Source: a virus
Virus record (IMG/VR): IMGVR_UViG_3300021256_000006
Location: 32,001 to 96,000 of that record
Reading direction: 5' to 3' (one strand)
Length of the DNA: 64,000 bases
The notes beneath the pieces were generated by a model. It was given only the letters and a program-made list of their open reading frames with translations. It searched no databases and was not told where the DNA came from. Below are positions 9,607 to 56,861 of this stretch, piece after piece. Position 1 is the stretch's first letter. Every line of letters starts with the position of its first letter. Made by a program: the position numbers and the translations under genes.

Positions 9607-12600
9607 ATGGCAACAAAACTACAAAGGCTTCGCGACAACATCGAAGCCATCAGGCACGCCCTGACATCCCCGCATTACGATGCCGACATCATGAACAAGT
9701 ACACGGGATTTGGCGGCATGACTTTTCTCCTCAACAACTTGGAGAAGAAATCATGGAGCAAGACTGACAAGCCCTGCTATGACGACACCGTGAAACTGCG
9801 CCAGCTGCTGCATGACAAGAGCGAGAACGAGAAACAATACGAGGCATGGATACAGAGTCTGAAGGCAAGCACATCTACCGCCTACTACACACCAAGGGAG
9901 ATTCCTCAAACGCTCTTCGACAATCTCTACCACATGGCAAAAGGTTGGTACGACAGCAACATCTATCCCAAAAAGGTGCTTGACCCATCAGCAGGAACTG
10001 GAGTCTTCATGTGCTCTGTCCTCCAAGCCTCTCTGGATTCCGGCAACATCCCTAAGCAAGTGGGCTACGAACTTGACCTACTCACAGGAACTATCCTCAA
10101 ACAAAGACTCCTGGGGCATGACATCCGCATCAAGGGTTTTGAGACCATCCCGAATGAAGACCTCGGCACATTCGACCTCGTGACCACCAATGTTCCCTTC
10201 GGCAACATCAACGTGTTTGACCCTCTCTACACCAATAGCAAGGAGCAAGTGAAAAGGGATGCAGCAAAGATGATCCACCGCTACTATGTGCTGAAAGGTC
10301 TTGATTGCCTCCGCAATGGAGGAGTGCTTGCCTACATCATCACCAGCAACTACATCAACCGTGACAACGACCAATTGGCAGAAGCGCTGAAGCACGCCAA
10401 CCTCGTCACCGCCATCCGATTTCCGAACAACCTCTTCAAGGAGGCGGGAACAGAAGTAGGGACCGACCTTCTCATACTCCAGAAGGACGAGCACAAGCAA
10501 GCTCTCACAGAAGACGAGCAGCAACTCCTCACACCTATGGAAATGGACGATTGCCCAACCAACCTCTACTTCAACAATCATCCCGACCACATCATTGCCA
10601 CCTCCACCGAGATAGGCACCGACCCCTACGGAAAGCCTGGCTATATCTACTACCACAAAGACGGAGTGCAAGGCGTAGCCGCAGACATGGGCCGCTTGCT
10701 CAAAGCGGAATTGCCAAACATTGACAAGTCTGCCTTTCAAAAGGGCCCCTCACTCTCTCCATCTTCCTCCCTTGCAGTCAGCGGTTCCCCCGCTGACACC
10801 ACTTCCCCCGCTCCCACCGCCAAGCATCCCATTCCTAATTCCTCATTCCTCATTCCTAATTCCGAACCCCTCTTCTTCCACTATGCCAACAAGTTTTTCC
10901 TCTTCTTCACCTTTGCACCAAGCAAGCATCAAGCACCTGCAAGCAAAGAACAGAAACTGAAAAACTTGCACAAGTTATACACCGACCTCTACAATTACGA
11001 GGCAAGCTATCAGAACGAGGACGAAGAAGGGCGCTGCAAGTTGAATGCTTCTTATGATTTGTTCGTCAGGTCTTACGGTTTCCTGAACGATTCCAAGAAT
11101 GCTTCTCTTGCCAAGCGTTTAGGCATTACCGACTTGCTTGCCATTGAGCGTTACGAGAATGGCACATGGGTAAAGGCAGACATCATGCTGGCACCCGTCG
11201 CCTTCTCCACCGACGAGGAACCGAAAGCGAGCTCACCCCAAGAGGCATTGGCAGCATCGCTGAATAAATACGGAAAGCCCAATATTGATTATATGCTCTC
11301 CATCACCACCTGTACCCGTGACCAACTTCTCAGCGAACTGCATGACGAGGTGTTCCTCAACCCCATCAACGGGCAATACGAAGTCAGGGCAAAGTTCCTC
11401 AGCGGAAATGTGATTGAGAAGATTGATGCAATCGAAAAACTTTCAGCTTCTCAACTGTCAACTGCGACCTGTCAACTTTCGCTGAAGGCTCTCAAGTCTG
11501 TCATCCCCGCTCCCATTCCTTTTGAGGAACTTGACTTCAACCTTGGCGAGCGCTGGATTGACTGCAAGGTGTATGAGCGCTTCGCCAACGACTTCTTCTC
11601 CATGCCTGGCAACACTCCCGACATCGAGGTGCGCTACAATCCTCTCCTCGACCAGTATGCAGCAGGTCTCAGGAAATGGGACTGGAATGAGAAGATACGC
11701 ACTCAGTACGCGGTCAAGAGTGAAGCATCCAAGACGCTTGACGGACTTGAAATATTCACTCATGCCCTGCATAATACAATACCCAAGTTGATGAAGTATC
11801 AACGAGACAAGGAAGGGCGCATCATGACGGACGAGAACTACGATAAAATTAAAATAGAGGACTCGGAGAATATGCAGTTGGCAGCAACCAAGATTGAAGA
11901 AATCAGACAGGCATTTGAGGAGTGGCTACGCCGACAGCCAAGGGAGTTCAGGGATGATTTGGCCAGCGTATACAACCATCGCTTCAACTGCTTTGTCAAG
12001 CCTAAATATGACGGTAGCCATCAGACATTCCCGGACCTCAACATGAAAGGGCTGAAAGAAAAGTATGGCATTGACCACATCTACGACAGCCAAAAGGATT
12101 GCGTCTGGATGCTCTTGCTGAATGGTGGTGGCATCTGCGACCACGAGGTAGGAAGCGGAAAGACACTCATCATGTGTATTGCAGCCCACGAGATGAAACG
12201 TCTCGGACTGTGCCACAAGCCAATGATAATAGGCATGAAGGCCAACGTGAGTGCCATAGCAGAAACATATCGGACAGCATATCCCAATGCTCGCATCCTC
12301 TTCGCTACAGAGGCTGACTACTCGGCAAGCAACCGTATGGCGTTCTTCAACAACGCCAAAAACAACGACTATGACTGCATCATCATGAGCCACGACCAGT
12401 TCGGACGTATTCCACAGAGCGAAAAAATACAGCTCGACATCATGTGCGACGAACTGCGACAGGTAGAAGACAGTCTGACAGCAATGGAGGATTGGGGCTA
12501 CAAAGTGACTTCAAAAATGCTCCGTGGATTGGAGATTAGAAAGCGCAACCTTCACGCAAAAATCATGAACCTCCGCAATTCTATCAATTCGAGGAAGGAT

Positions 12601-14628
12601 GATATTGTGGACTTCGAGAGGCTGGGCATTGACCACATCTTCATTGACGAGAGCCACCAGTTCAAGAACCTCGGCTTTGTGACACGGCATGACCGCGTGG
12701 CTGGCATTGGCAACACACAGGGCAGCAAGCGTGCTTTCAATCTGTTGATGGCCATCCGCACCATACAGAACCGCACAGGGCGTGACCTCGGTGCCACCTT
12801 CCTCAGTGGCACCACCGTTACTAATTCCCTCACAGAACTGTTCCTTCTCTTCAAGTATCTCCGGCCCAATGCACTTCGCAAACAAGCCATCACTTGCTTC
12901 GATGCTTGGGCTGCTATATTCACGAAGAAGAGCACGGAGTTCGAGTTCAATGTCACCAACTGCATCGTTCAGAAGGAGCGCTTCCGTTACTTTATCAAGG
13001 TGCCGGAACTCGCCATGTTCTACAACGAGATTACAGACTTCCGAACGGCAGAGGATGTCGGCATCGAACGACCCCAAAAGCATGCAAGACTGCTGAACAT
13101 AAAGCCGACACCGGACCAAGAGGGCTTCATTGAGCGTCTGATGAAGTTTGCGCAGGGAGGTTCCCCTTCCCTGATATTCCGTGAAAGCCTTTCCGACAAC
13201 GAGGAAAAGGCGCGTATGCTTATCTGTACCGACCTCGCTCGAAAGATGTCTCTGGATATGCGGCTGATTGACCCTCGCTTTGGTGATCATCCATCCAACA
13301 AGGCAAGCCAATGCGCCAACCTCGTCAAGAAGTATTATGATGAATATGACGACCAACGTGGCACACAGCTCATCTTCTCCGACATATCCACATGGCAAAA
13401 CAATACCGATTGGAGTGTGTACAGCGAAATCAAGCGAAAGCTGATGGACATGGGCATACCTGGCAGCGAAATCAGGTTCATTCAGGAGTGTAAGAACGAC
13501 CACCAAAAACAATTGCTCATTGAGCAGGTCAACCTCGGATATGTGCGTGTCCTCTTTGGCTCCACATCCATGCTGGGTACCGGAGTGAACCTCCAGCAGC
13601 GAGTGGTGGCCGTGCATCACCTCGACACACCGTGGCGACCTTCCGACCTCGAACAGAGAGACGGACGGGCCATCCGGAAAGGAAACGAAGTGGCACGGCT
13701 CTATGCCAACAACCAAGTAGATGTTATCATCTATGCTGTTGAACGCTCGTTGGACTCTTACAAGTTCAATCTCCTGCACCTCAAACAAACCTTCATCAAC
13801 CAACTCAAACGAGGACAACTCGGAGTGAGAACGATTGACGAGGGCAGCATGGACGAGAACGGCATGAACTTCTCGGAGTACATGGCTATTCTTTCCGGCA
13901 ACACCGACTTGCTGGAACGTGCCAAACTGGAGAAGCGCATTGCCATGCTGGAGGCCGAACGCAAGAACTTCTACCGTGACCAGCGAGAACAAGAGGAAAA
14001 AATGGAAACGCTGAAAAAGGATAACGAGCTCTACAAAAATCACCTTGCAGACGCCCAAGCCGACTTTGCCAAGTTCAACAAAGCAAGGCGCCTCGATGAA
14101 GAGGGCAATGTAGTGAACGACCTCCGTCTGGATGGTCTCGCACTCAGCGGTTCCCCCGCTGAGATACAAACCCTCCTCGGCAACCACCTCATCAAAATTG
14201 CCAACACCGCCAGAACACAAGATGCCCACCTTCCCATCGGCTCCATCTATGGATTCAAGGTGCTGGTCAAGACGGTGGAGACAGCAACGATGGACGGCAA
14301 TCCGCAGTACGCTAATATGTTCTTTGTCAGCAGCGACACACTCATGTATTCTTACAATAATGGCTACATCAATCGCAACTCTCCCAAGGCATCAGCACTC
14401 TACCCGCTGAACGCCTTGCAGCGCATCCCGGAAATCATCACTGGGTGGATGGAGAAAATCGAAAGCAACGAGAACAGCATCAAGCAGATTGCATCTATCC
14501 TTTCCGCAACGACTGAATGGTCAAAGGAGGACCGTTTGAAGCAGCTGAAGAATGACCTCAAACTTCTTGACAAGAAGATTGAGGAAGACATGAAGAAAAA
14601 GGACGAGCCCACCAAGAAAGCAGCCTAA
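9607..14628 (+). CDS. N6-adenine DNA methyltransferase / SNF2-family helicase fusion (P1 DarB-like architecture), 1673 aa
   Basis: Trimmed to ATG 9607 (ACAATTATGGCAACA). MTase motifs VLDPSAGTGVF and TNVPFG; helicase motifs GSGKT, DESHQFKN, LSGTTVTN, GTGVNLQ, QRDGRAIRKGN; coiled-coil C-terminus. Ends in -KAA. Confidence 0.85.
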   Translation: MATKLQRLRDNIEAIRHALTSPHYDADIMNKYTGFGGMTFLLNNLEKKSWSKTDKPCYDDTVKLRQLLHDKSENEKQYEAWIQSLKASTSTAYYTPREIPQTLFDNLYHMAKGWYDSNIYPKKVLDPSAGTGVFMCSVLQASLDSGNIPKQVGYELDLLTGTILKQRLLGHDIRIKGFETIPNEDLGTFDLVTTNVPFGNINVFDPLYTNSKEQVKRDAAKMIHRYYVLKGLDCLRNGGVLAYIITSNYINRDNDQLAEALKHANLVTAIRFPNNLFKEAGTEVGTDLLILQKDEHKQALTEDEQQLLTPMEMDDCPTNLYFNNHPDHIIATSTEIGTDPYGKPGYIYYHKDGVQGVAADMGRLLKAELPNIDKSAFQKGPSLSPSSSLAVSGSPADTTSPAPTAKHPIPNSSFLIPNSEPLFFHYANKFFLFFTFAPSKHQAPASKEQKLKNLHKLYTDLYNYEASYQNEDEEGRCKLNASYDLFVRSYGFLNDSKNASLAKRLGITDLLAIERYENGTWVKADIMLAPVAFSTDEEPKASSPQEALAASLNKYGKPNIDYMLSITTCTRDQLLSELHDEVFLNPINGQYEVRAKFLSGNVIEKIDAIEKLSASQLSTATCQLSLKALKSVIPAPIPFEELDFNLGERWIDCKVYERFANDFFSMPGNTPDIEVRYNPLLDQYAAGLRKWDWNEKIRTQYAVKSEASKTLDGLEIFTHALHNTIPKLMKYQRDKEGRIMTDENYDKIKIEDSENMQLAATKIEEIRQAFEEWLRRQPREFRDDLASVYNHRFNCFVKPKYDGSHQTFPDLNMKGLKEKYGIDHIYDSQKDCVWMLLLNGGGICDHEVGSGKTLIMCIAAHEMKRLGLCHKPMIIGMKANVSAIAETYRTAYPNARILFATEADYSASNRMAFFNNAKNNDYDCIIMSHDQFGRIPQSEKIQLDIMCDELRQVEDSLTAMEDWGYKVTSKMLRGLEIRKRNLHAKIMNLRNSINSRKDDIVDFERLGIDHIFIDESHQFKNLGFVTRHDRVAGIGNTQGSKRAFNLLMAIRTIQNRTGRDLGATFLSGTTVTNSLTELFLLFKYLRPNALRKQAITCFDAWAAIFTKKSTEFEFNVTNCIVQKERFRYFIKVPELAMFYNEITDFRTAEDVGIERPQKHARLLNIKPTPDQEGFIERLMKFAQGGSPSLIFRESLSDNEEKARMLICTDLARKMSLDMRLIDPRFGDHPSNKASQCANLVKKYYDEYDDQRGTQLIFSDISTWQNNTDWSVYSEIKRKLMDMGIPGSEIRFIQECKNDHQKQLLIEQVNLGYVRVLFGSTSMLGTGVNLQQRVVAVHHLDTPWRPSDLEQRDGRAIRKGNEVARLYANNQVDVIIYAVERSLDSYKFNLLHLKQTFINQLKRGQLGVRTIDEGSMDENGMNFSEYMAILSGNTDLLERAKLEKRIAMLEAERKNFYRDQREQEEKMETLKKDNELYKNHLADAQADFAKFNKARRLDEEGNVVNDLRLDGLALSGSPAEIQTLLGNHLIKIANTARTQDAHLPIGSIYGFKVLVKTVETATMDGNPQYANMFFVSSDTLMYSYNNGYINRNSPKASALYPLNALQRIPEIITGWMEKIESNENSIKQIASILSATTEWSKEDRLKQLKNDLKLLDKKIEEDMKKKDEPTKKAA
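10741..10945 (+). repeat. Intergenic-type repeat module embedded in-frame between the MTase and helicase halves
   Basis: Contains a hairpin copy (10777-10797), TTCCTMA heptamers (10829-10862), a CACCTTTGCACC box and a ~70-nt paralog of 9459-9529. Confidence 0.7.
10777..10797 (+). repeat. GC hairpin family copy (inside ORF, translated as SGSPA)
   Basis: cttgca GTCAGCGG-TTCCC-CCGCTGAC. Confidence 0.8.
14144..14162 (+). repeat. GC hairpin family copy (inside ORF, translated as SGSPA)
   Basis: ctcgcac TCAGCGG-TTCCC-CCGCTGA. Confidence 0.8.
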
Positions 14629-14636
14629 TAAAAAAA

Positions 14637-14790
14637 TAGGAATTTGGAATGAGGAATGAGGAATGGTATGTTATGCTGATTGCATGGTATCAATTCCTAT
14701 CTCCTCATTTCTCATTCCTAACTCCTCATTGTATCAACATTCCATTCCTAACTCCTAATTCCTAATTCCTCATTTTGTATAATTCCTCAT
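14637..14790 (+). repeat. Element X copy 3 (inverted relative to copy 1) plus extra TTCCTMA heptamers
   Basis: 14637-14691 is the reverse complement of 1055-1109 with 2 mismatches; followed by an AATTCCT-type arm, TTGTATCAAC and more heptamers. Confidence 0.75.
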
Positions 14791-14903: not shown

Positions 14904-14924
14904 CCCATCCTTTGCTCCTGCGTA

Positions 14925-14941
14925 CAGCGGTTTTCCCGCTG
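14925..14941 (+). repeat. GC hairpin family copy
   Basis: cctgcgta CAGCGG-TTTTC-CCGCTG. Confidence 0.85.
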
Positions 14942-14968
14942 ACACCGCTCAATCACCCTCCCTGCGTA

Positions 14969-14985
14969 CAGCGGTTTTCCCGCTG
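14969..14985 (+). repeat. GC hairpin family copy
   Basis: cctgcgta CAGCGG-TTTTC-CCGCTG; second copy 44 nt after the first. Confidence 0.85.
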
Positions 14986-18042: not shown

Positions 18043-18204
18043 ATGACTGCAAAACAACTCGACCGCCTCATTGACGAGCTTCTTAATCTAACAGAAGAAG
18101 AACGTAAGCAATTCCTAAGCCGGATGCGACAAGTGATAAAGTCCACAGCTTGCAACTGTGAAGACCTTGCCAAAGCCTTTTCTAATTTCACGCAAGAAGA
18201 ATGA
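18043..18204 (+). CDS. Small hypothetical protein (53 aa) translationally coupled to the XRE gene
   Basis: Not in the ORF track; ACAATTATGAC start; stop overlaps ATG 18201 (ATGA). Confidence 0.3.
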   Translation: MTAKQLDRLIDELLNLTEEERKQFLSRMRQVIKSTACNCEDLAKAFSNFTQEE

Positions 18205-18422
18205 ATACAAGAACTAATATCGGCAAGCGCATTGCCGAACTCCGAGAACAACAAAATCTGTCGCAGAGAGAGCTGGCCCGTCGATGCAACATTGACCAGG
18301 CTCACATATCCAGAATAGAGCGAGGACTGTTATCGCCATCTCTCGACACGCTTGCAGAAATAGCGGAAACACTTGATGCCAAGGTGGAACTTGTCCCCTG
18401 CGCTCAACGGTTTTCCCGTTGA
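18201..18422 (+). CDS. XRE-family helix-turn-helix transcriptional regulator
   Basis: IGKRIAELREQQNLSQRELARRCNIDQAHISRIERG is a canonical Cro/C1 HTH; the last 8 codons are a hairpin-family copy. Confidence 0.8.
   Translation: MNTRTNIGKRIAELREQQNLSQRELARRCNIDQAHISRIERGLLSPSLDTLAEIAETLDAKVELVPCAQRFSR
18405..18421 (+). repeat. GC hairpin family copy (forms the 3' end of the XRE gene)
   Basis: cctgcgct CAACGG-TTTTC-CCGTTG; compensated stem variant. Confidence 0.85.
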
Positions 18423-20035: not shown

Positions 20036-20178
20036 TGTTTTGCAGCATGTTTTTCCTGTTGAGAACTTGGCTTCCTAAAGCAAAGTTCTCAAAATTTTTT
20101 CATCACCCCAACCACCAAAGGCCAAACTATGCCCTTTTGTCACTTACCCCCCCCTTTCTCCCTCCTCTCTCCTGCGTC

Positions 20179-20195
20179 CAGCGGTTTTCCCGCTG
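20179..20195 (+). repeat. GC hairpin family copy
   Basis: cctgcgtc CAGCGG-TTTTC-CCGCTG. Confidence 0.85.
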
Positions 20196-20215: not shown

Positions 20216-20247
20216 AAAAAGCGCCCGACTTTCACAAGCCGGGCGCT
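20216..20247 (-). terminator. Rho-independent terminator of the tape-measure operon
   Basis: On the minus strand AGCGCCCG-loop-CGGGCGCT followed by TTTTT, 33 nt after stop 20280. Confidence 0.65.
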
Positions 20248-20279
20248 CCCCAAAACAATCAATTAAAAAAAGAAAACGA

Positions 20280-27020: not shown

Positions 27021-27254
27021 AGCTGTGCTTGTTATTTGTGCTTGTGTTATTTGTGTCTGTTTTTGTATGGTTATACAATTTTAATTGCTTCTCCCTGCGT
27101 CCAGCGGTTTTCCAGCTGTCTCTCTCCTTTCCCCTCTCTTCGTCTTCGTTTTCGTCCTCCTCCCTCCTGCGCCCGCCGGTCCTCTCTCCCCTCTCCTCTC
27201 TTCCCTCATCCCTCATCCCTCATACATCTTCCCTCATCCCTCTTCCCTCTTCCC
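27021..27254 (+). repeat. Composite intergenic module (hairpin, CGTYTT hexamers, CCCTCAT heptamers; polypyrimidine on + strand)
   Basis: Hairpin 27102-27118, hexamers 27141-27158, degenerate hairpin remnant ~27164-27185, CCCTCAT units 27203-27250. Confidence 0.75.
27102..27118 (+). repeat. GC hairpin family copy (degenerate 3' arm)
   Basis: cctgcgtc CAGCGG-TTTTC-CAGCTG. Confidence 0.7.
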
Positions 27255-29174: not shown

Positions 29175-29190
29175 ATCAATTCCCTAATTG

Positions 29191-29246
29191 TCAACTATCA
29201 ACTGTCAACTATCAACTGTCAGCTATCAACTGTCAATTATCAATTC
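29191..29246 (+). repeat. Eight tandem TCAACTR heptamers
   Basis: tcaacta tcaactg tcaacta tcaactg tcagcta tcaactg tcaatta tcaattc. Confidence 0.85.
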
Positions 29247-29913
29247 CCTCCTCCCCTGCGTCCAGCGGTTCGCCCGCTGGTTCATCCATCTTGTGTGTAA
29301 TACGGTTCCCAACTTCCACTTCCTGCTTCTCCTTCAACTTATCCAGTGCTTTTTCAATCTTCTCATCATGTTCATCAATATGCGCATCCCATTGTCGCAT
29401 AATGCCCAGCAAAGTCTTGTCGCCAATCGTTTTGCGGTCAGGGTCAAGCACCTCGACGTAGGGAGTGTACACAAAGGCTTGTGGTCTGATTTGCTTGTCT
29501 TCAACCTCCGGCTCTGGCTTGTCAAGTTGATTGGCTCTTGTCAGCACCTTGGCAGCATCGAGCATGCCTTTTCGGTCGTTCACTGCCGCAGAATCTCGCA
29601 TGACCTTTTCGCTGGCCCAGTTCACCAGGTCTTTCGCCTTCTGCCGTGTCATGCGCTGAAAGTTGTTGCGGATATACTCGAAGTAAACCATGTCCTCAGC
29701 AATCATGGACGGTGAATGTTTGAACTTCCACCGTAGGCACTGAACCACATCCATGCAAGGATTCTCGTTGTACATGTCGTACAGCGAAAACAAGTCATTA
29801 AGCCTCTTGCGAACGTGCACAAGTTCCGTCAGTTCGTGTGCCGGAATGCCGTTCACGAAGTGTGACTGAATAAAAGGTGTCAAATCTGTCTTCATATAAC
29901 TGTCAACTATCAA
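29233..29913 (-). CDS. Hypothetical protein, terminase small subunit candidate by position only
   Basis: 226-aa ORF directly upstream of terL; the last ~15 codons are encoded by the hairpin and heptamer module. Confidence 0.4.
   Translation of the reverse strand: MIVDSYMKTDLTPFIQSHFVNGIPAHELTELVHVRKRLNDLFSLYDMYNENPCMDVVQCLRWKFKHSPSMIAEDMVYFEYIRNNFQRMTRQKAKDLVNWASEKVMRDSAAVNDRKGMLDAAKVLTRANQLDKPEPEVEDKQIRPQAFVYTPYVEVLDPDRKTIGDKTLLGIMRQWDAHIDEHDEKIEKALDKLKEKQEVEVGNRITHKMDEPAGEPLDAGEEGIDN
29263..29279 (+). repeat. GC hairpin family copy (loop TTCGC)
   Basis: cctgcgtc CAGCGG-TTCGC-CCGCTG. Confidence 0.8.
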
Positions 29914-31442: not shown

Positions 31443-31495
31443 ACACTAACCGTTTTCGTTTTCGTCTTCGTTTTGGTTTTCGTTTCTCCTGCGCT

Positions 31496-31512
31496 CAGCG
31501 GTTTTCCCGCTG
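31496..31512 (+). repeat. GC hairpin family copy
   Basis: cctgcgct CAGCGG-TTTTC-CCGCTG. Confidence 0.85.
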
Positions 31513-31569
31513 GCCCTCTCTCCTCGTCTCTCCCGCCGTTTTCGTTTTCGTTTTCGTTTCTACTGCGCT

Positions 31570-31586
31570 CAGCGGTTTTCCCGCTG
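31570..31586 (+). repeat. GC hairpin family copy
   Basis: actgcgct CAGCGG-TTTTC-CCGCTG. Confidence 0.85.
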
Positions 31587-33127: not shown

Positions 33128-33192
33128 GCGCCAAATATAATAAAAAGTTTGCTGAAACAAACAAAAAAGAGAATCAAATTACATAAATGGTT

Positions 33193-33231
33193 TATATTTG
33201 TACGCATAACAAAAAATAATTACTATTTTTG
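33193..33231 (+). promoter_or_regulatory. Two + strand -7 boxes (TATATTTG, TATTTTTG) in a divergent promoter region
   Basis: 33193-33200 and 33224-33231 both match TAnnTTTG, upstream of ATG 33272. Confidence 0.45.
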
Positions 33232-33271
33232 CACAAACTTATGGCAACATCAAACGAAAAAACGAAACAGG

Positions 33272-34495: not shown

Positions 34496-34513
34496 GCACC
34501 TGCTTCCTGCGCC

Positions 34514-34530
34514 CAACGGTTTCCCCGTTG
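34514..34530 (+). repeat. GC hairpin family copy (compensated variant)
   Basis: cctgcgcc CAACGG-TTTCC-CCGTTG. Confidence 0.85.
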
Positions 34531-34625
34531 TCCCAATTCCCAACTCTCAACTGTCAACTCTCAATTGTCAACTATCAATTCCTCATTCCCAATTCCTCAT
34601 TCCTAATTCCTCATTCCTAATTATA
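34531..34625 (+). repeat. TCAACTN heptamers then six TTCCYMA heptamers
   Basis: caactctcaactgtcaactctcaattgtcaactatcaa + ttcctca ttcccaa ttcctca ttcctaa ttcctca ttcctaa (34579-34620). Confidence 0.85.
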
Positions 34626-37599: not shown

Positions 37600-37615
37600 G
37601 CCCCCGCCCTGCGTC

Positions 37616-37632
37616 CAGCGGTTTTCCCGCTG
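37616..37632 (+). repeat. GC hairpin family copy
   Basis: cctgcgtc CAGCGG-TTTTC-CCGCTG. Confidence 0.85.
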
Positions 37633-37639
37633 GCCCTCT

Positions 37640-37675
37640 CGTTTTCGTCTTCGTTTTCGTCTTCGTTTTCGTCCC
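37640..37675 (+). repeat. Six CGTYTT hexamers
   Basis: cgtttt cgtctt cgtttt cgtctt cgtttt cgtccc. Confidence 0.85.
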
Positions 37676-37696
37676 CTCGTCCTTCTCCCCTGCGCT

Positions 37697-37713
37697 CAGC
37701 GGTTTTCCCGCTG
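37697..37713 (+). repeat. GC hairpin family copy
   Basis: cctgcgct CAGCGG-TTTTC-CCGCTG. Confidence 0.85.
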
Positions 37714-45128: not shown

Positions 45129-47018
45129 ATGACTAAAGAAATAAGACCATTGCAGCGGTATAATGCGAATACCGAACAGACAGAAATTTTCTATCCTGCC
45201 ACAACGACCGACGCGATTGCGCACCCCACAAAAAGAAAGTCGCTAACAAACGTGATTTCTGACATAGAAGCAAGTATTGCCGACATCGAGACGATTGCCG
45301 AGGGCTATGTGCGTGTGGCTGGTTCGTCAAGTCCTGCTCTCTCTTACAAGTCATACAAGTATCACGAACAGGGCGGCTTCGGACGTGAATCTGTGTTCTC
45401 GCTGTTCTACCCCTGTCTGGTGGGAACACCGCTGACAGGCAGTGGCACAGAAGGCAAGGTGCTTCATGTGCTTCAGAAGTTCGGTGCAAGAACTATCGAC
45501 GGAAGCCCGAAATGGCTTGACATCTACGGAACACCTCATGCCATCGACGGCTCGGAGGGTGACGTGCTGATTGTGAACATTGAACCATTTTACAGCATCA
45601 ACGGCAAGCACACAATCGAGGGCACGGAGTATGATGTATTCCTGATGTCGCGCTCACCATTCACCTGGCAGGGCATCGAGGCAGAGCACATGGAGAAGTT
45701 CGGATGGAGCCCTGACTACTGCGTGAGCCATACGGACACCGACAACGTGGTGCGTATGCACTCAGTTTATAACCCTGCGTGGAACGGATCATACCAAGCA
45801 CCTCAAGGCGTGACTGGCAAGTACGTCTATACCACCGACCCTGAGACGGGCGACATTGTGGAAACCTATGATGCAAACGAGACACTGCTGGGTGGTGCAG
45901 GTGGCTTGCACTCTACTGACATCGACCTGACTACGGGTGAACAACGAGCCATGAACATGAACGCTGACCCGACGAAGACCGTGCCATGGATGAACCAGAC
46001 GGCAGAGGGTTGCAACCGACTGATGTCGCTGATACTGGCAGAGGGTGGCACGTTCGATGCGCACAACGCAGCTCGTATGGGTAGTGGTTTCTCATCCAAT
46101 GACCCCGCCACCGCAGCAGGCGACTGGGAACAGGCGGGCAGCGGTGCGAAGAACGGTTTGCGCGTGAAGGACAAGAACGACGCATGGAAGTACTACGGAA
46201 TGAACGGCAACGTCCGCTTCCTGACGGGTGCAACGTCGGGTGCGGTGTATGCTGCCAACGTTATCAACTCTTGGCGAAATCCGTGGCACATTCTGGAGGC
46301 GCACCGTGCGATGTCGTATGCTATTGAGAACGACGTGCACGAGCTGGAGTGGTTTGTGTTCGAGGGCAACAAGTACAAGTACCGCAGCGTGCAAGGCTTC
46401 AACGGTCCGAGTCACGGAGAAATGACCTGTGTGGTGTGGAAGCTCATGGCAACACAGGCTGGTGCCAATGCCATCGACCCGACAGACAACGCAACGAGCA
46501 TCGCAGGCAATCGCGTGGAAATACTCGTCAGCACAGCACTCGTTCACGGCATGACTACGCAGGTATCACCTTCGTGGTGGACTTCAGGACTGCTGTTCAC
46601 GGAAGATGAGAGCGGACAGTATGAGTGCTTCATTGAGCGCGACCAGGCAGAACTGGTGAAGGGCATTGCCGCTGACAATTACGACCCAGCAACACCACGA
46701 AACTTCGAGACTATCTACGATCATGTGCTCACCGTACAGAAGGGCGAAGGCTACGCTAAGAACTATCTGAACGGAGCGCTGATGCTGCCTGATACCAATG
46801 CCAACAAGACTGGGGCAGGCTTGCATACCTATGTTGGCAAATACAACTGGTTTACGGGTAGCAATGCAAGTGCTGGGAAGCGGTCGGTCCGTGGCTTCCG
46901 GCGCGGCGCCCTCGCTAACTACGCGGTCCTGTCTCCGTTGGCGCTGAACGCTTACTACTCGCCCTCGGGCGCGGGCACGGGCCTCGGCTTCGGCACCTGT
47001 TGTCGCATAGCGGAATAG
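45129..47018 (+). CDS. DGR target protein (fibre-like, 629 aa) with a C-terminal variable region
   Basis: The last ~45 codons (RSVRGFRRGALANYAVLSPLALNAYYSPSGAGTGLGFGT...) are the VR homologous to the TR at 47252. Confidence 0.85.
   Translation: MTKEIRPLQRYNANTEQTEIFYPATTTDAIAHPTKRKSLTNVISDIEASIADIETIAEGYVRVAGSSSPALSYKSYKYHEQGGFGRESVFSLFYPCLVGTPLTGSGTEGKVLHVLQKFGARTIDGSPKWLDIYGTPHAIDGSEGDVLIVNIEPFYSINGKHTIEGTEYDVFLMSRSPFTWQGIEAEHMEKFGWSPDYCVSHTDTDNVVRMHSVYNPAWNGSYQAPQGVTGKYVYTTDPETGDIVETYDANETLLGGAGGLHSTDIDLTTGEQRAMNMNADPTKTVPWMNQTAEGCNRLMSLILAEGGTFDAHNAARMGSGFSSNDPATAAGDWEQAGSGAKNGLRVKDKNDAWKYYGMNGNVRFLTGATSGAVYAANVINSWRNPWHILEAHRAMSYAIENDVHELEWFVFEGNKYKYRSVQGFNGPSHGEMTCVVWKLMATQAGANAIDPTDNATSIAGNRVEILVSTALVHGMTTQVSPSWWTSGLLFTEDESGQYECFIERDQAELVKGIAADNYDPATPRNFETIYDHVLTVQKGEGYAKNYLNGALMLPDTNANKTGAGLHTYVGKYNWFTGSNASAGKRSVRGFRRGALANYAVLSPLALNAYYSPSGAGTGLGFGTCCRIAE
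46880..46999 (+). repeat. DGR variable region (VR); may extend to ~47015
   Basis: Ungapped 120-nt match to 47252-47371 with 21 mismatches, all at TR adenines. Confidence 0.85.
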
Positions 47019-47062
47019 AAAACGTAAACCCCGCGAGCAAGGCGAGCGCGAAAACGAAAACT

Positions 47063-47079
47063 GCGCGGCTGAGCCGCGC
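47063..47079. promoter_or_regulatory. GC-rich hairpin/cruciform downstream of the VR (candidate DGR target-recognition element)
   Basis: GCGCGGC-TGA-GCCGCGC, perfect 7-bp stem, 45 nt after the stop. Confidence 0.4.
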
Positions 47080-47108
47080 CCGCTGAGCAATAGCGAAGGC
47101 TATAATAC

Positions 47109-47127
47109 TGCCGCAAGGCGGCATTTT
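47109..47127 (+). terminator. Weak terminator-like hairpin
   Basis: TGCCGC-AAG-GCGGCA followed by TTTT. Confidence 0.3.
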
Positions 47128-47251
47128 GCCCGAATAGTGTGGAGATGTGGTGCGACATCGTTGAAGCAAAAATCCATGCCACCGACCAAAGCGCACAAGG
47201 GAATCGGAGTACCCGTCAGGTGGTGAGGTTGAAATAAGGCGGCTGCACTGT

Positions 47252-47371
47252 ACGGTCGGTCCGTGGCTTCCGGCGCGGCAACAACGCTAACAACACGAAC
47301 CTGTCTCCGTTGACGATGAACGCTAACAACTCGCCCTCGAACGCGAACACGAACATCGGCTTCGGCAACTG
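47252..47371 (+). repeat. DGR template repeat (TR)
   Basis: In the target frame it carries 12 AAC codons (..GNNANNTNLSPLTMNANNSPSNANTNIGFGN*); non-coding context. Confidence 0.85.
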
Positions 47372-47575
47372 AAACGCAGTAACGAAATACATAAGCCCTC
47401 CAATGCTTGACCTGAGCATGAAGAGGCAGGTGCAGAGCCTCGCTGACGAAGAGAGCGGAACAACGCAGGAAAAGGTGCTAAGACCACCAGCCGACCGCGC
47501 AAGAATGAGCGAAGGAAAGGGTAGGCTGCAAGGCGTTCAAAAACCTTGCTATCGGCGCAACAGGTCATAAAGCGT

Positions 47576-47592
47576 TCAGCGGTTCCCCCGCT
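47576..47592 (+). repeat. GC hairpin family copy in the DGR TR-RT spacer
   Basis: aagcgtt CAGCGG-TTCCC-CCGCTG aaaaac, 20 nt before the RT ATG. Confidence 0.85.
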
Positions 47593-47612
47593 GAAAAACA
47601 AAGAAAAGAACA

Positions 47613-48941
47613 ATGGGGACATCCACATGGAACAACATCACCACCGGCCTTCACGCTGCTGTATATGACAGCTACATGGCCAAGAGCTCACGCCAACGCG
47701 CCAAGCGTGAGGTGGTGGAGGTCATGGCAGATGTGGACGGGTTCTGCCAACGGAAGCAGGCAGAGCTGGCAAGCGGCAGCTACCATGTGGGTGACTATCG
47801 TCACTTCCAGTTGAAGGACAAGAAGAAGGAGCGTAGCATCTCTGTACTGCCCTATGAAGACCGCTGCGTGCAGAATGCTATCAAGGATGCCATAGAGCCG
47901 CTATTGCTCCGTCAGATGACCGACGACATGATGGGAGGTCTGCCTGGTTGCGGCGTGCTGGCAAGCGACAAGCGGCACCAGGTGGTGGCACGGATGCGGG
48001 TGATGCTGAACGACCGCTCGCTGAGGTATTGCTTGCAAGGTGACATCGAGAAGTTCTACGACCATGTGGATAATGTCATCAGTATGCGGCTCATTGAGAA
48101 GCAGGTGAAAGACAAGCGCACAAGGGCGGTTATCCGTCAACACCTCTTCAACCAGAAGCGGCTCGCTATTGGTGATCCATTCAGTCACCTTATCGCCAAT
48201 CTCAATACGTCGGTCATTATTCGCAAGGCAAAGGAGTTGTACGGCAATAGCATCAAGGTGGTCAATTTTGCCGACGACTTCATAGCCTTCAGCAGAGACA
48301 AGACAATCCTCAATGCCCTGCGGAAAGATATGAAGATATGGGCAAAGGCGATGCGGTTGCATTACAAGCCGATGTACGTGCGTCCCATAGACCCGCAACC
48401 AGGAAAGGAATACAACCCTATTATCTTCTGCGGCTACAAGTGCGGGCGTGGTTATGTTCACCTCACCCCGCGCACTAAGAAACGATACGTCAAGACCCGA
48501 CACAAGGAACGCAGTATTGGCTCCTATCAGGGCATTATCGGCGTGGCTGACACGAAACATCTGAGACTAAAAGTACAAATTAACGATAACAAAACTATGA
48601 GCGAGAAAATCAGGCGACCATTTGCAGGACGCCCCATGAAGATAGAAACGATGGAAGGTATCAACCACACCATTGTGGACTTTCAGAAACGCAGCAGCAA
48701 TCAGAAGGACTGCGACAGTTACTATCACATCCAGGCACTTGCCGACGGGCTGGGGCTAATAGTCTATTCGACGGGCGCACAGAAAATCTGCAAGTATCTC
48801 GACACCAAGAGAAGGACGGACATCCCATTGCGTGACATGAAGATAGTGCACGACTGGAGTGGATTCTACTACGATGGCACCGTATATACCGATGCCGAGG
48901 AAGAGGAAATGATTCGCAAACAATTTAACATATCGAAATAA
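47613..48941 (+). CDS. DGR-type reverse transcriptase
   Basis: 442 aa; RT blocks SISVLPYEDRCVQ, LQGDIEKFYDHV, IGDPFSHLIANL (DGR-like I/LGxxxS box), NFADDFIAF (YxDD-type). Confidence 0.9.
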   Translation: MGTSTWNNITTGLHAAVYDSYMAKSSRQRAKREVVEVMADVDGFCQRKQAELASGSYHVGDYRHFQLKDKKKERSISVLPYEDRCVQNAIKDAIEPLLLRQMTDDMMGGLPGCGVLASDKRHQVVARMRVMLNDRSLRYCLQGDIEKFYDHVDNVISMRLIEKQVKDKRTRAVIRQHLFNQKRLAIGDPFSHLIANLNTSVIIRKAKELYGNSIKVVNFADDFIAFSRDKTILNALRKDMKIWAKAMRLHYKPMYVRPIDPQPGKEYNPIIFCGYKCGRGYVHLTPRTKKRYVKTRHKERSIGSYQGIIGVADTKHLRLKVQINDNKTMSEKIRRPFAGRPMKIETMEGINHTIVDFQKRSSNQKDCDSYYHIQALADGLGLIVYSTGAQKICKYLDTKRRTDIPLRDMKIVHDWSGFYYDGTVYTDAEEEEMIRKQFNISK

Positions 48942-48942
48942 T

Positions 48943-49284
48943 ATGAGACAAGAACGATTTTCAGAGCCTCACAAGCAAGGCTTGATGAAGCTCACTGGTG
49001 ACAACACAGGACTGGTGTACTGCAACGAGCGCACCGAAGTAGTAACCGACGAAGAGGGCAACGAAAAGACGGAGTACGTGTACGACGTGTACGAGGTCAC
49101 AGATGCCCGCGACCCTCACAAGGTGAAGAATGAGGTGATAGAGAATGAGCACCCCTTCGGCGATGAGACGAAGATACTGCGCAAGACCATTGCCAAGATG
49201 CTAAAGGCATCAGGTCAGTATAACAGCGAGGACTTCCGAGAGTTTAAGCAATACAACGAATTTGTCGAAAGCATCGACGTATAG
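48943..49284 (+). CDS. Hypothetical acidic protein (113 aa)
   Basis: Starts 2 nt after the RT stop; Glu/Asp-rich; not Avd-like. Confidence 0.45.
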   Translation: MRQERFSEPHKQGLMKLTGDNTGLVYCNERTEVVTDEEGNEKTEYVYDVYEVTDARDPHKVKNEVIENEHPFGDETKILRKTIAKMLKASGQYNSEDFREFKQYNEFVESIDV

Positions 49285-54199: not shown

Positions 54200-54327
54200 A
54201 GGAAGAATGAGAAATGCAACAAAGAAGTGAGGATGGACTACCGCCCACAAACCGAGGAGAAACCTACAAAACAGCAAGGTAATTGCTGTCAAGAAACTGC
54301 ACCACCCTTCTGCCCCACCCCTGCGTC

Positions 54328-54344
54328 CAGCGGTTTTCCCGCTG
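54328..54344 (+). repeat. GC hairpin family copy
   Basis: cctgcgtc CAGCGG-TTTTC-CCGCTG. Confidence 0.85.
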
Positions 54345-54410
54345 GCCCTCTCTCCTCCCTCTCTCCTCCCTCTCGTCTTCGTTTTCGTTTTCGTTTCTTC
54401 CCCCTGCGCT

Positions 54411-54427
54411 CAACGGTTTACCCGTTG
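54411..54427 (+). repeat. GC hairpin family copy (compensated variant)
   Basis: cctgcgct CAACGG-TTTAC-CCGTTG. Confidence 0.85.
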
Positions 54428-54546: not shown

Positions 54547-55053
54547 ATGAAAACTCCTGAACAAATGAAAGAGCAGTTTGACGAACTGTACAACCTCATG
54601 TCGAACAGCAACAATGTTGCTTTCATGCGCACGTTTGGTCATGTGCACAAGGAAATGATGAACTGGTTCATCGCTAACAAGCCCGAGGCGGCAGAGGAAT
54701 GGTTGTGCAAACTGGAGAGCATCAAGTGGCATAACTATCTCACGCAGAAGGAAGCGGACAAGATTGTCGCAGGAATGACCCCTAAAGCGCCATGGAGCCG
54801 AGACGCATGGAAACAGGCCATGGACGGACTTGGCATCTCAACGGAAGAGGCACCATACTATAACTCTTGTGCGCTCTATACAGAGATGAACAAGATGTAT
54901 AGCGACCATGCCGAAACCTTGGCTAAGTTGATGGGCAAGACCATTGCTGAAATTCCAGCCGAGACAATGGTCAAGGCCATGTACGGCTTTGCCATTGACA
55001 ACTTGAAGGACAAGGACCACGTGTACAACATCCGCTCCTACTTCAAACTCTAA
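54547..55053 (+). CDS. Hypothetical protein (168 aa)
   Basis: ORF track; no family recognised. Confidence 0.5.
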   Translation: MKTPEQMKEQFDELYNLMSNSNNVAFMRTFGHVHKEMMNWFIANKPEAAEEWLCKLESIKWHNYLTQKEADKIVAGMTPKAPWSRDAWKQAMDGLGISTEEAPYYNSCALYTEMNKMYSDHAETLAKLMGKTIAEIPAETMVKAMYGFAIDNLKDKDHVYNIRSYFKL

Positions 55054-55075
55054 CCACACATCTCCTACTTGCGTA

Positions 55076-55092
55076 TGACGGTTTACCCGTCA
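55076..55092 (+). repeat. GC hairpin family copy (compensated variant)
   Basis: cttgcgta TGACGG-TTTAC-CCGTCA. Confidence 0.8.
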
Positions 55093-55159: not shown

Positions 55160-55440
55160 TTATCAAATGATTACATCATCGCATCGTCACATCATCGCAT
55201 TTCCGCATTTCCCCGTTTCCGCATCTTCACATTTCCACATTTTCCCATCTTCCCCCCCCACCCTTTTTTTTATCTCCGTTTTCGCCTTCTCCCTGCGTCC
55301 AGCGGTTTTCCCGCTGGCTCTCCCTCCTCCACCTCCCCGTCTCCCCCTCCTTCGTCTTCGTCCCCTCATCCCTCATCCCTCATCCCTCATACATCTTCCC
55401 TCTTCCCCCCCCCCTCCTCTCTCCCCATCTTCACATTTTC
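55160..55440 (+). repeat. Composite polypyrimidine module (CGCATTTC/CACATTTC ~8-mers, hairpin, CCCTCAT heptamers)
   Basis: ~8-mer repeats 55170-55250; hairpin 55300-55316; CCCTCAT units 55363-55390, sharing ~35 nt with 27203-27235. Confidence 0.8.
55300..55316 (+). repeat. GC hairpin family copy
   Basis: cctgcgtc CAGCGG-TTTTC-CCGCTG. Confidence 0.85.
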
Positions 55441-55445
55441 AAATG

Positions 55446-55459
55446 ATGTTATATAACAT
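55446..55459. promoter_or_regulatory. Perfect 14-bp palindrome ATGTTATATAACAT (candidate operator)
   Basis: Self-complementary; 48 nt upstream of the parA -7 box; paralogous to 15044-15057. Confidence 0.45.
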
Positions 55460-55493
55460 ATAAAAATGTAATCACATTTTCACATTTTCACAC

Positions 55494-55501
55494 TAACTTT
55501 G
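55494..55501 (+). promoter_or_regulatory. -7 promoter box TAACTTTG (parA promoter)
   Basis: Exact TAnnTTTG, 74 nt upstream of ATG 55575; preceded by CACATTTT x2 (55473-55488). Confidence 0.5.
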
Positions 55502-55574
55502 CACCCAGTGAGAAAAATACTGCTGCATCGCATAGCAGCCATTCATCAATAATCATTATAAACAACATCAAATT

Positions 55575-56336
55575 ATGGCAAAAACTATCGCAATCCTCAA
55601 CTTCAAGGGTGGGGTAGGGAAGACGACCACAGCCATCAACCTGGCCGCAGCCCTGCATAACCACAAAAAGAAAGTCCTTGTAATCGACATTGACTTCCAG
55701 TGTAACGCATCTTCCACATTAGGGTACAGACCCAAGGACGGAGACAGCATCTACGAGTTGTTTACGGTCAAAGACATCAAGTCTCTTCCTCTCTATGAAC
55801 GGGAAAAAGGTTTTGACTTTATCCCTTCGTCCATGAACATGAAGAACTTCAATGAAATCATGTCTTCACGGAACCGACGTGAGTACATCCTAAAGAAGCT
55901 CGTCGATATGGTGCGTGACAATTATGATTTCATCTTTATTGATTGCCCGCCTAACGGTGGCCTCTTGAATACAAATGCAATGTGTGCAGCGGACTCTATC
56001 ATCATCCCTCTTGATTGTGAGCCGTATTCCCTGCAGGGAGTTATCACCATCTTGGATGAAATCAAATCCATACAGGAGGATGAGGTGAATCCTGACATCA
56101 ATATCCTTGGTTTTCTCCTTACTCGCTACGACTCTGTGCTGTCTATCCATAAGGAAGCAGCCAGCATGATGCGTGACCGCTATCCCGGGAAAGTCTTTAA
56201 CGCAAAGATACGAAAGAACACAGCGCTCTCCAAAGCATCAGCACAGGGAAAGACCATCTTCGAGTATGCACCTGACTCTGCCGGAGCCGCCGATTACGAC
56301 CAACTGGCCCGCGAAATCCTCAAAGCAAAGAAATAA
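55575..56336 (+). CDS. parA: ParA/Soj-family partition ATPase
   Basis: Deviant Walker A LNFKGGVGKTTTAINLA; IFIDCPP; 253 aa. Confidence 0.9.
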   Translation: MAKTIAILNFKGGVGKTTTAINLAAALHNHKKKVLVIDIDFQCNASSTLGYRPKDGDSIYELFTVKDIKSLPLYEREKGFDFIPSSMNMKNFNEIMSSRNRREYILKKLVDMVRDNYDFIFIDCPPNGGLLNTNAMCAADSIIIPLDCEPYSLQGVITILDEIKSIQEDEVNPDINILGFLLTRYDSVLSIHKEAASMMRDRYPGKVFNAKIRKNTALSKASAQGKTIFEYAPDSAGAADYDQLAREILKAKK

Positions 56337-56354
56337 CATCTTTCACCAAGCGTC

Positions 56355-56370
56355 CATCGGTTCCCCGATG
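56355..56370 (+). repeat. GC hairpin family copy (compensated variant) between parA and its partner
   Basis: aagcgtc CATCGG-TTCC-CCGATG. Confidence 0.75.
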
Positions 56371-56391
56371 GGACAAATAAAAATACTAATT

Positions 56392-56718: not shown

Positions 56719-56726
56719 CCGGGCAG
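56701..56726 (+). terminator. Hairpin spanning the stop codon of the par operon
   Basis: CTGCTCGGTC-aactat-GACCGGGCAG (10 bp with one G-U pair). Confidence 0.35.
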
Positions 56727-56736
56727 TTCCCATACT

Positions 56737-56835
56737 AACACATTTCCACATTTTCACATTTTTACACTTTCCCATTTCCGTATCTCCCCATCCCCCCGTT
56801 TTCGTCTTCGTTTTCGTTTTCGTTTTCGTTCTCTC
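56737..56835 (+). repeat. CACATTTY ~8-mers followed by six CGTYTT hexamers
   Basis: cacatttccacattttcacattttt (56740-56765) and hexamers 56797-56832. Confidence 0.8.
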
Positions 56836-56844
56836 ACCCGCGCC

Positions 56845-56861
56845 CAACGGTTTACCCGTTG
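56845..56861 (+). repeat. GC hairpin family copy (compensated variant)
   Basis: cccgcgcc CAACGG-TTTAC-CCGTTG. Confidence 0.85.

Follow-up and report, generated by a model that had tools for sequence, protein, structure and literature searches.

Why should a short hairpin recur 20 times, always on the same strand, in a virus genome whose genes run in both directions? The question is raised by IMG/VR record IMGVR_UViG_3300021256_000006, of which a stretch of 64,000 nucleotides (positions 32,001 to 96,000 of the record; hereafter, the window) carries 20 dispersed copies of a GC-rich hairpin. An earlier note on this DNA had described these copies as one family, under selection for the folded structure and oriented by the genome strand rather than by transcription, and had left the function open among a single-stranded DNA or RNA structure, a protein-binding site, and a replication or packaging signal. 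The analysis reported here indicates that the hairpins are very probably a host repeat akin to the repetitive extragenic palindromic (REP) sequences of bacteria. The fuller explanation, under which a REP-type repeat of rumen Prevotellaceae has colonized a phage-plasmid of ~99.5 kb with a polarity set at the level of the replicon, is probable as a whole, although its parts differ in strength.

One hairpin family on one strand

A direct check found all 20 hairpins in place. Each unit consists of an unpaired 5' tag (Y-G-Y-Y), a 6- to 7-bp GC stem closed by GG:CC, and a TTYNC loop of 4 to 5 nt; the motif in the window reads YTGCGYN, then the stem, then the loop. The degenerate 22-mer GCGYNCARCGGTTYNCCCGYTG, with up to 2 mismatches allowed, matches the window 18 times, all 18 on the plus strand, against an expectation of 0.00 in dinucleotide shuffles. 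An unbiased scan for perfect 6-bp GC-rich hairpins recovered 19 of the 20 copies, the one at 27102 having one stem mismatch. A covariance model, the check that the earlier note had proposed, was trained on 40 copies and run over both strands with filters off. Within the window, it returned exactly the 20 listed sites, all on the plus strand, with E values from 5e-9 to 1.4e-3; the next-best match (E=0.81) lies on the minus strand. The treatment of the copies as a single family is supported.

The compensated stem changes also proved to be real. Five of the seven stem pairs are changed on both sides, with 39 doubly changed cells compared to 9.8 in shuffles; 91.8% of the cells in the stem alignment pair, compared to 25 to 55% in slid controls, and G-U wobble pairs are almost absent. 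Because some copies had been picked by pairing, an extra test was conditioned only on the loop core GGTTNNNCC. A perfectly complementary 4-bp flank accompanies 18 of the 34 plus-strand cores in the window, as well as 7 of 20 and 2 of 6 in two related phages discussed below (L128 and L130, respectively), and none of the 26 minus-strand cores, the frequency expected by chance being ~1 in 256 (~0.4%). Folded as single-stranded DNA, the stems reach -5.9 to -8.6 kcal/mol (z of -3.4 to -4.1). What is conserved is the fold and not the stem sequence, which varies in the window among CAGCGG, CAACGG, TGACGG, and CATCGG.

A 21st plus-strand copy was identified outside the window, in locus L162, directly after the iterons of the replication origin. 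Counted over the window and L162, all 21 copies are on the plus strand (two-sided binomial p ~1e-6), a count that covers all but 25.5 kb of the 99.5-kb genome; the pairs in the window are all head-to-tail. The copies are unevenly spread, with none in the first 10.7 kb of the window, between 57 and 64 kb, or in L162 except for its single site (~27 kb in total). Close relatives have no clear copies in the corresponding DNA of the replication module. The block of minus-strand genes in the window contains 5 plus-strand copies, and one further copy is coded antisense; the polarity is independent of transcription, as the earlier note had maintained. That note had also set the hairpins apart from canonical terminators, and indeed, intrinsic terminators can be rejected because no window copy has a T-run 3' of the stem and six copies oppose the local gene direction.

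The same hairpin in rumen Prevotellaceae chromosomes

A scan of bacterial hosts, with one genome per species, yielded at least 120 matches. About 45 of those listed are in metagenome-assembled genomes (MAGs) of rumen Prevotellaceae or Bacteroidaceae, in which the motif is strongly enriched; the remaining listed matches are scattered singles in GC-rich genomes, consistent with chance or with conserved genes. The host loci examined are 8 kb long, several per MAG. One of them (L034) contains, in a CT-rich spacer, an array of 7 copies arranged head-to-tail with a period of 52 to 55 bp. Similar arrays in one orientation are present in L082, L083, L065, L095, and L044, and the arrays adjoin chromosomal genes, such as those of the SusD family. 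No proteins are common to the window and the host array loci, and hence, these arrays are chromosomal and do not belong to relatives of the phage.

The repeat is found not only between host genes but also within them, with 31 copies inside long host open reading frames (ORFs). The proteins that carry copies include ClpB, SufB, and PNPase-like, YidC-like, and TrpE-like proteins. Comparison of the Prevotella ClpB with that of Escherichia coli reveals an exact insertion of 8 residues (24 nt), which is the hairpin-encoded SASSGSPA, and in SufB, the hairpin-encoded peptide sits in a variable, gapped linker. A practical consequence for annotation is that the recurrent SGSPA-like peptides that these bacteria have in ClpB, SufB, and further proteins should be read as repeat insertions and not as protein motifs.

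Among the functions that the earlier note had offered, the abundance of the motif in host chromosomes argues against a phage-specific regulatory, packaging, or operator signal, and a single-stranded DNA structure stands as the best reading. Rumen Prevotellaceae are the presumed hosts of the phage-plasmid, an uncultured 99-kb element that the dialect of its repeat would tie to these bacteria.

Hairpin units as insertions in related phages

Syntenic relatives of 93 to 96 kb were detected in other gut metagenomes, and the search of relatives that the earlier note had suggested gave a divided answer. The hairpin is present in L128 and L130, whereas the covariance model found no copies in 20 syntenic kb of L126, the closest relative (61% identity in the marker protein). 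The generalized pattern NNNNGG-TTYNC-CCNNNN matches 19 plus-strand and 0 minus-strand sites in the window, 7 and 0 in L128, and 2 and 0 in L130. With the covariance model, 17 copies were identified in L128, all 17 on the plus strand relative to the shared gene order, and two in L130. The stems are CGTCGG, TGGCGG, CGGTGG, and AGGCGG in L128 and CGAAGG in L130, but the loop, the GG:CC closure, and the tag are kept. With stem sequences that change from genome to genome around these constant parts, the unit appears to be recognized by its shape. The hairpin is not a conserved element of the phage: it is missing from the 20 kb of L126, and the positions that it occupies in other relatives, some of them within coding DNA, are not the same.

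About nine copies in L128 and two in L130 lie within minus-strand genes; the antisense-translated peptides of copies in the relatives include WRENRQEQ, SVGKTDGRKE, and SKGEPS. A four-way alignment of 60%-identical orthologues contains blocks of +35 and +25 residues that are found in L128 only and correspond to antisense-translated hairpin units. Hairpin units are therefore insertions, with a strand that is fixed relative to the replicon and not to the gene. The sequence AGCGG, present in some of the stems, is the Chi sequence of Bacillus subtilis. Nevertheless, polar sequences similar to Chi or to the FtsK-orienting polar sequences (KOPS) can be dismissed, since the stem is a palindrome, its variants do not preserve AGCGG, and insertion gives rise to the copies. 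Motif scans of IMG/VR returned only single matches, mostly coding or at chance level, and a protein-based scan of IMG/VR for a 987-aa protein, the gene for which is flanked by copies in the window and in L128, found no relatives.

A host HUH-DprA protein as the candidate enzyme

To identify an enzyme that could act on the hairpin, six-frame translations of all fetched loci were searched for an HUH motif followed by a Y motif. One gene family was found, in L014, L059, and L078, three loci that had all been retrieved only through the hairpin. The product, denoted HUH-DprA, is a protein of ~400 aa that contains VIMP[DE]HLH, then YWE[IM], and then YI[AK]GNP, all invariant in 32 homologues. The signatures tabulated for class 2 REP-associated tyrosine transposases (RAYTs) are HuH, W[EQ], and YIxxNP (Quentin et al. 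2018, PMC6006769), and the HUH-DprA proteins carry all three in order. An AlphaFold model was obtained from the 32 homologues (predicted local distance difference test score of 80.7). Foldseek comparison matched its N-terminal domain to the ISDra2 transposase TnpA (2xqc, 2xma, and 2xm3; probability 1.0, target TM 0.58 to 0.63, E ~6e-4) and also to the Sulfolobus IS200 TnpA (2ec2), and its C-terminal domain to DprA and ShosA. The N-terminal domain of the host protein is accordingly modeled with an HUH/Y1 transposase fold. The family, which is unannotated, comprises 1606 homologues of 379 to 562 aa, with the length varying through in-frame insertions of the hairpin.

The gene is closely associated with the repeat. 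In five independent loci, family hairpins lie within ~30 nt of the start and/or the stop of the HUH-DprA gene and on the same strand as the gene (L014, 1659-2876; L059, 5767-7047; L078, 5090-6370; L155, 4001-5485; L157, 4001-5230). Past the stop, the hairpins either follow it by 11 to 17 nt or overlap it, and in-frame copies are found inside the gene as well; in-frame REPs inside the gene have been described as a peculiarity of RAYT subclass 2.4, from Cyanobacteria and Bacteroidetes (PMC6006769). Three of the ~45 listed host loci that were selected by the hairpin fall in the HUH-DprA gene, a share well beyond what chance would give among a few thousand genes.

An enzyme encoded by the phage itself was considered and dropped, given that Pfam and PHROGs domain scans of 58 window ORFs revealed no HUH, HNH, or other nuclease partner and that tblastn with the host HUH protein found no HUH gene in the phage DNA examined. 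Nor is there a multicopy IS200/IS605 unit with tnpA, because the HUH gene occupies one conserved position in the five loci, and the dispersed copies are bare hairpins.

Origin of the strand polarity

The origin of the element lies to the left of the window, in L162. It consists of ~14 direct iterons GGTCYAAYAATTCCAACT at positions 2597-3110 of that locus, in two clusters split by an AT-rich stretch, and is followed by a gene for a Rep_3-like initiator at 3469-4869. Relative to position 1 of the window, the iterons are located 6.8 to 7.3 kb and rep 5.1 to 6.5 kb to the left. The iterons and the Rep_3-like initiator, along with ParA (window 55575-56336), identify the element as a phage-plasmid of ~99.5 kb.

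Under the explanation favored here, a REP-type miniature palindromic repeat, native to the chromosomes of rumen Prevotellaceae, would have colonized a resident phage-plasmid. The mobilizing enzyme would be encoded by the host and would combine an IS200/RAYT-like HUH tyrosine nuclease with a DprA-like single-stranded DNA-binding domain, and it would recognize, in single-stranded DNA of one strand only, the folded hairpin with the tag next to it. HUH/Y1 transposition in IS608 and ISDra2 acts on the lagging-strand template (PMC6006769). If the phage-plasmid replicates one way, either by unidirectional theta replication from the iteron origin or by rolling circle, every insertion would end up on the same strand. 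Together with one-way replication, HUH/Y1 strand specificity predicts that the forks run rightward across the window, coming from the iterons by way of rep, and that the plus strand is copied as the lagging-strand template. In this way, the strand of the copies would offer a testable prediction of the replication direction of the phage-plasmid. The copies located 16 to 22 nt past plus-strand stops may act secondarily as 3' hairpins of mRNA, as REPs do. The analysis shows that the hairpins belong to the host family, that their fold covaries, that the units are insertions with a strict polarity, and that a gene for a protein with an HUH fold is associated with them; movement of the repeat by this protein, the lagging-strand step, and the direction of replication are inferred. 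The replication-strand mechanism for the polarity is tentative, and we rate its chances at somewhat short of even.

Several observations weigh against this explanation. With respect to the enzyme, the NCBIfam model NF047646, "REP-associated tyrosine transposase," matches the HUH-DprA proteins at E=3e-6 and 2.6e-4 but with only 27 and 21 bits compared to a cutoff of 80; Pfam assigns no domain to the protein; and a profile search of the PDB reaches the E. coli TnpA-REP (4er8) only at E=1.6. In all five loci, the gene is sandwiched between giant ORFs (at least 4,200 aa and ~8,000 aa), in Prevotellaceae or Bacteroidaceae, and it could be just another heavily colonized gene. The protein is a candidate for mobilizing the repeat on computational grounds. 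Classical REPs and REPINs form inverted pairs, and the copies that flank RAYT genes are inverted, whereas all copies here are direct. With respect to polarity, the strand count is short of the complete genome, as mentioned above. The plus strand is C-rich overall, and its GC skew gives no clear replication direction; the skew comparison proposed in the earlier note was uninformative in this respect, being dominated by gene orientation and CT-rich islands. In the host, the coding copies are in sense and in the single frame A-x-S/N-G-S/F/L-P-A/V in 31 of 33 cases. A pure replication-strand model does not predict this bias, and therefore, selection on the encoded peptide (S-G-S-P-A, with small residues) or some other bias has to be added. 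Finally, both intergenic sites that flank the gene for the 987-aa protein are occupied in the window and in L128, at the same distance of 16 to 23 nt from the stop, which hints at a function or at a site preference.

An alternative explanation places the function in RNA: the hairpins would be 3'-end stabilizers or parts of Rho-type terminators with C-rich, G-poor flanks, their orientation being fixed on plus-strand transcripts. Four window copies start 16 to 22 nt after a plus-strand stop codon and one supplies a stop codon, two L128 copies start 17 to 23 nt past stop codons, the host copies follow the stop of the HUH gene at a similarly short distance, and the host copies are co-oriented with genes. 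The flanks resemble Rho loading sites (the stretch 55208-55447, for instance, contains 117 C and 16 G), and REPs are known to be located downstream of ORFs and to be transcribed (PMC3733652). However, the 5 copies in the minus-strand block, the antisense coding copy, and ~9 copies within minus-strand genes of L128 would lie antisense to all local mRNAs; the stems have neither a U-tract nor, with few exceptions, G-U pairs; and the minus-strand tape-measure gene is followed by a canonical terminator of its own (20216-20250). As an account of the whole family, an RNA-level role is unlikely. For the copies past plus-strand stops, a role at the 3' end of the RNA is plausible; it leaves unexplained those that run against the transcription around them.

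Another possibility is a cis-element selected by the phage-plasmid itself and acting on single-stranded DNA of one strand, such as primosome or ssi-type priming sites on the lagging-strand template or nick sites like those of phage T5. The T5 nick sites are GCGC-like, and the tag of the hairpins contains GCGC or GCGT. Furthermore, the polarity is strict over at least 64 kb and is the same in related phages, one copy adjoins the iterons of the origin, and both regions flanking the gene for the 987-aa protein are occupied in the window and in L128. Such an element is nevertheless quite improbable: the motif is missing from 20 kb of the closest relative and, apart from the single L162 site, from ~27 kb of the same genome, it is nearly missing from L130, and copies are inserted in protein loops at nonconserved places. 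Moreover, the identical motif is found in host housekeeping genes and around the host HUH gene, and no primase or nickase partner for the hairpins was found in the window. Finally, duplex sites bound by a regulator of the phage, for instance the XRE protein, which could be suspected from the ~20 dispersed asymmetric sites and from the XRE gene ending in one of them, are very improbable, because stem changes with compensation that keeps the pairing point to a folded strand and not to a duplex operator read by sequence, the orientation ignores transcription, and the motif is present in host housekeeping genes.

Relationship to known repeats and mobile elements

The REP-type host repeat that we favor can be compared with several known systems. 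The superfamily of CGTC-tagged REPs, which includes Rickettsia RPE-4 and RPE-6, has been reported in Bacteroidetes, without a dedicated transposase (Di Nocera et al. 2013, PMC3733652). Most tagged REPs are found past the ends of ORFs; some provide a stop codon, and in-frame copies within known genes have been described (PMC3733652). Like the CGTC REPs, the hairpins described here are short and palindromic, with a loop of 4 to 5 nt and variants that differ in the stem, and the unpaired tag at one end is close to theirs; the window copies are likewise found downstream of ORFs, supplying stop codons, and in frame in genes. Also as in REPs, the host copies are dispersed over several loci per MAG, in arrays past genes and, in 31 cases, within genes. 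Seven of the 20 window copies have CGTC as the tag next to the stem, and the others have CGCT, CGCC, CGTA, CGTT, CAGT, CACT, or TGYC-like tags; the 5' tag as a whole, TGCG-Y-N in the phage compared to AGTG-Y-G-N-N in host copies, is near the CGTC consensus and its published variants but not identical to them. The differences are that the stems here are GC-rich and 6 to 7 bp long, compared to 8 to 9 bp with A-T in the first positions of CGTC REPs; that there is no CCA tail; that the hairpins form singletons or head-to-tail arrays (in the window, L034, L082, L083, L065, and L128) and never head-to-head dimers; and that they are found in CT-rich spacers, in a phage-plasmid, and in association with an HUH gene.

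The GTAG-tagged REP/REPIN-RAYT systems share with the present case an HUH/Y1 gene with DHLH, WE, and YIxxNP, the flanking of this gene by the repeat, and the dispersal of the repeat over the genome. Unlike in those systems, the tag is not GT[AG]G, the flanking copies are direct and not inverted, and the host protein has an additional DprA-like C-terminal domain, has no Pfam match, scores below the NCBIfam cutoff, and is encoded between giant ORFs. The IS200/IS605 elements IS608 and ISDra2 have subterminal hairpins on the "top" strand only and employ a comparable logic of recognition of a structure plus its flank. The fold of the host protein matches the ISDra2 TnpA, and the outcome would likewise be strand specific and tied to the lagging-strand template; unlike in these elements, there is no multicopy unit with its own transposase, and the moving part would be a noncoding hairpin unit of 24 to 55 nt.

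The small dispersed repeats (SDRs) of cyanobacteria and the palindromic elements of Rickettsia are tiny hairpin units that one orthologue may have and another lack; they are tolerated in frame in protein loops, usually in one frame. The hairpin described here differs from them in sequence family and in phylum, and we know of no description of phage colonization or of strict replicon-wide polarity for either. The nearest analogy drawn in the earlier note, the stoperators of cluster A mycobacteriophages, did not hold up, and the nearest known system is a REP/RAYT-type repeat. Stoperators (about 20 to 30 per genome) are dispersed and asymmetric as well, but they are duplex sequences read by a repressor and follow transcription, whereas the hairpins keep the fold and not the sequence, and their orientation ignores transcription.

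In the literature on Prevotella REPs, phage hairpin repeats, and HUH-DprA fusions, no description of this hairpin family was found. The new features are the direct-only organization, the HUH-DprA candidate enzyme, the colonization of a phage-plasmid, and a strand polarity that is separated from transcription. REP-type repeats are among the most common and least understood repeats of bacteria, and for their CGTC-tagged class, which has no known enzyme, an HUH nuclease with a DprA-like domain would be a candidate of a new architecture. It is conceivable, if doubtful, that a CGTC-like REP family has its dedicated enzyme in HUH-DprA, which would insert units of 24 to 55 nt into the lagging-strand template of any replicon of the cell, resident phage-plasmids and essential genes included, such that the strand of a copy would record the direction of replication and the stem "dialect" would record the host. 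Because the genes of the phage-plasmid lie on both strands and the repeat on only one, the polarity of replication or of the strand can be told apart here from that of transcription, a distinction that chromosomes do not allow as cleanly.

Individual copies and other features of the phage-plasmid

Two copies lie in frame in the gene for a 1696-aa methylase-helicase, at 10774..10795 (tag GCAGT, then CAGCGG-TTCCC-CCGCTG; read as AVSGSPAD) and at 14140..14161 (ALSGSPAE). A third, at 18400..18421 with a CAACGG stem, provides the XRE gene 18201-18422 with its final codons and its TGA stop (PCAQRFSR-stop). To these three coding copies, which the earlier note had recognized, a fourth can be added at 29258..29279 (core at 29263), which the minus-strand ORF 29233-29913 reads antisense, as PAGEPLD, in its C-terminal tail; the C terminus of this ORF is longer than that of its closest homologue. 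A possible old or divergent copy, GGGAGG-TTCC-CCTTCC with one G-T pair, was noticed at 13145-13177 in the methylase-helicase gene, where it is read as AQGGSPS (E=3.2 with the covariance model).

Paired copies are found in the intergenic region at 14920..14941 and 14964..14985 (44 nt apart); at 31491..31512, which is intergenic within the minus-strand block, and 31565..31586 (74 nt apart); at 37611..37632, starting 16 nt past the stop of the plus-strand gene 34636-37599, and 37692..37713, upstream of the gene 37761-38909 (81 nt apart); and at 54323..54344, again intergenic, and 54406..54427, with a CAACGG stem (83 nt apart). Three further copies follow stops: 34509..34530 (CAACGG stem) starts 18 nt past that of the plus-strand gene 33014-34495, 55071..55092 (variant stem TGACGG/CCGTCA) lies 22 nt past that of the gene 54547-55053, and 56350..56370 (variant stem CATCGG/CCGATG, with a 4-nt loop) lies 18 nt past the parA stop. 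The copy at 20174..20195 lies antisense to the local genes, in a CT-rich island that follows the minus-strand tape-measure gene; that at 27097..27118, with the stem mismatch, opens a CT-rich island of 190 nt that separates two minus-strand genes; and that at 55295..55316 is within a 240-nt CT-rich, G-poor island upstream of parA. The copy at 56840..56861 (CAACGG stem) comes after a tract of CGTTTT repeats, and the one at 47572..47593 is located between the template repeat of a diversity-generating retroelement (DGR) and the start codon of its reverse transcriptase.

The window is 99.9 to 100% identical to parts of a 99,478-bp contig (ENA ERZ12302812 NODE_360) and represents about two-thirds of the ~99.5-kb element. 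Because the window runs across the ends of the NODE_360 contig, the genome is circular or permuted. Besides the methylase-helicase and ParA, the window encodes an ArdC-type antirestriction protein, PcfJ/PcfK, MutS-I, a reverse transcriptase, PAPS reductase, and a DUF4494 protein, and, on the minus strand, a 2246-aa tape-measure-like protein. The start codons are preceded not by Shine-Dalgarno sequences but by A/T-rich, G-poor leaders, and promoter-like TAnnTTTG boxes are present; we take this combination to be of the Bacteroidota style. Megablast with 20-kb pieces of the window gave no match to known phages or plasmids, and tblastn of two structural proteins against phage records gave none either; no Rfam family was detected in the window at gathering thresholds, and no tRNA genes were found in it.

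Another set of close relatives, L150-L154, corresponds to positions 52 to 64 kb of the window and beyond, and encodes a DUF4494 protein that is 86 to 94% identical. Past the right end of the window, these relatives encode a sliding clamp, HNH endonucleases, and N6/N4 methylases, and their GC content is 54 to 55% compared to 47.7% in the window. With the covariance model, L150-L154 have no clear copies of the family and a single subthreshold match, in L150 (E=0.021).

The DGR occupies positions 45129-49284 of the window and includes a variable repeat (46881-46999), a hairpin of its own (47063-47079), the template repeat (47253-47371), and the reverse transcriptase gene (47613-48941). All 20 differences between the template and variable repeats are at adenines of the template. 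Between the window and a 99.9%-identical contig (L160), the only near-identical one, the hairpin copies are the same, and all 15 differences lie inside the variable region of the DGR; hence, the C terminus of the target protein is diversifying in the population. The DGR is active. An involvement of the DGR with the hairpin family was rejected, since the hairpin of the DGR at 47063 is a different one and the family is dispersed far beyond this locus; the proximity was judged to be coincidental.

Intergenic regions of the window also contain short tandem words that are G-poor on the plus strand, namely, TCAACTG/TCAACTA, CCTCATTCCTAATT, CGTTTT, CATCCCT, and CACATTTT, at 14700-14790, 27205-27230, 29190-29245, 31445-31485, 34535-34625, 37640-37675, 54375-54395, 55365-55390, 55430-55500, 56735-56775, and 56795-56830. 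Related phages have tandem words of their own upstream of start codons, such as CTCAACT and TAACTCC. These words may be unstructured leaders or decayed repeat arrays. Pyrimidine-rich islands are confined to the plus strand, the island at 55208-55447 being the one with the C and G counts given above. A long imperfect inverted repeat, GGAATGAGGAATGAGGAATGG ... CCTCATTTCTCATTCCTAACTCCTCATT, spans 14635-14790, just past the methylase-helicase stop and upstream of a hairpin pair. Finally, directly past the stop of the tape-measure gene, the minus strand at 20216-20250 has a canonical terminator composed of a hairpin and a T-run, which indicates that ordinary terminators are used alongside the hairpin family.

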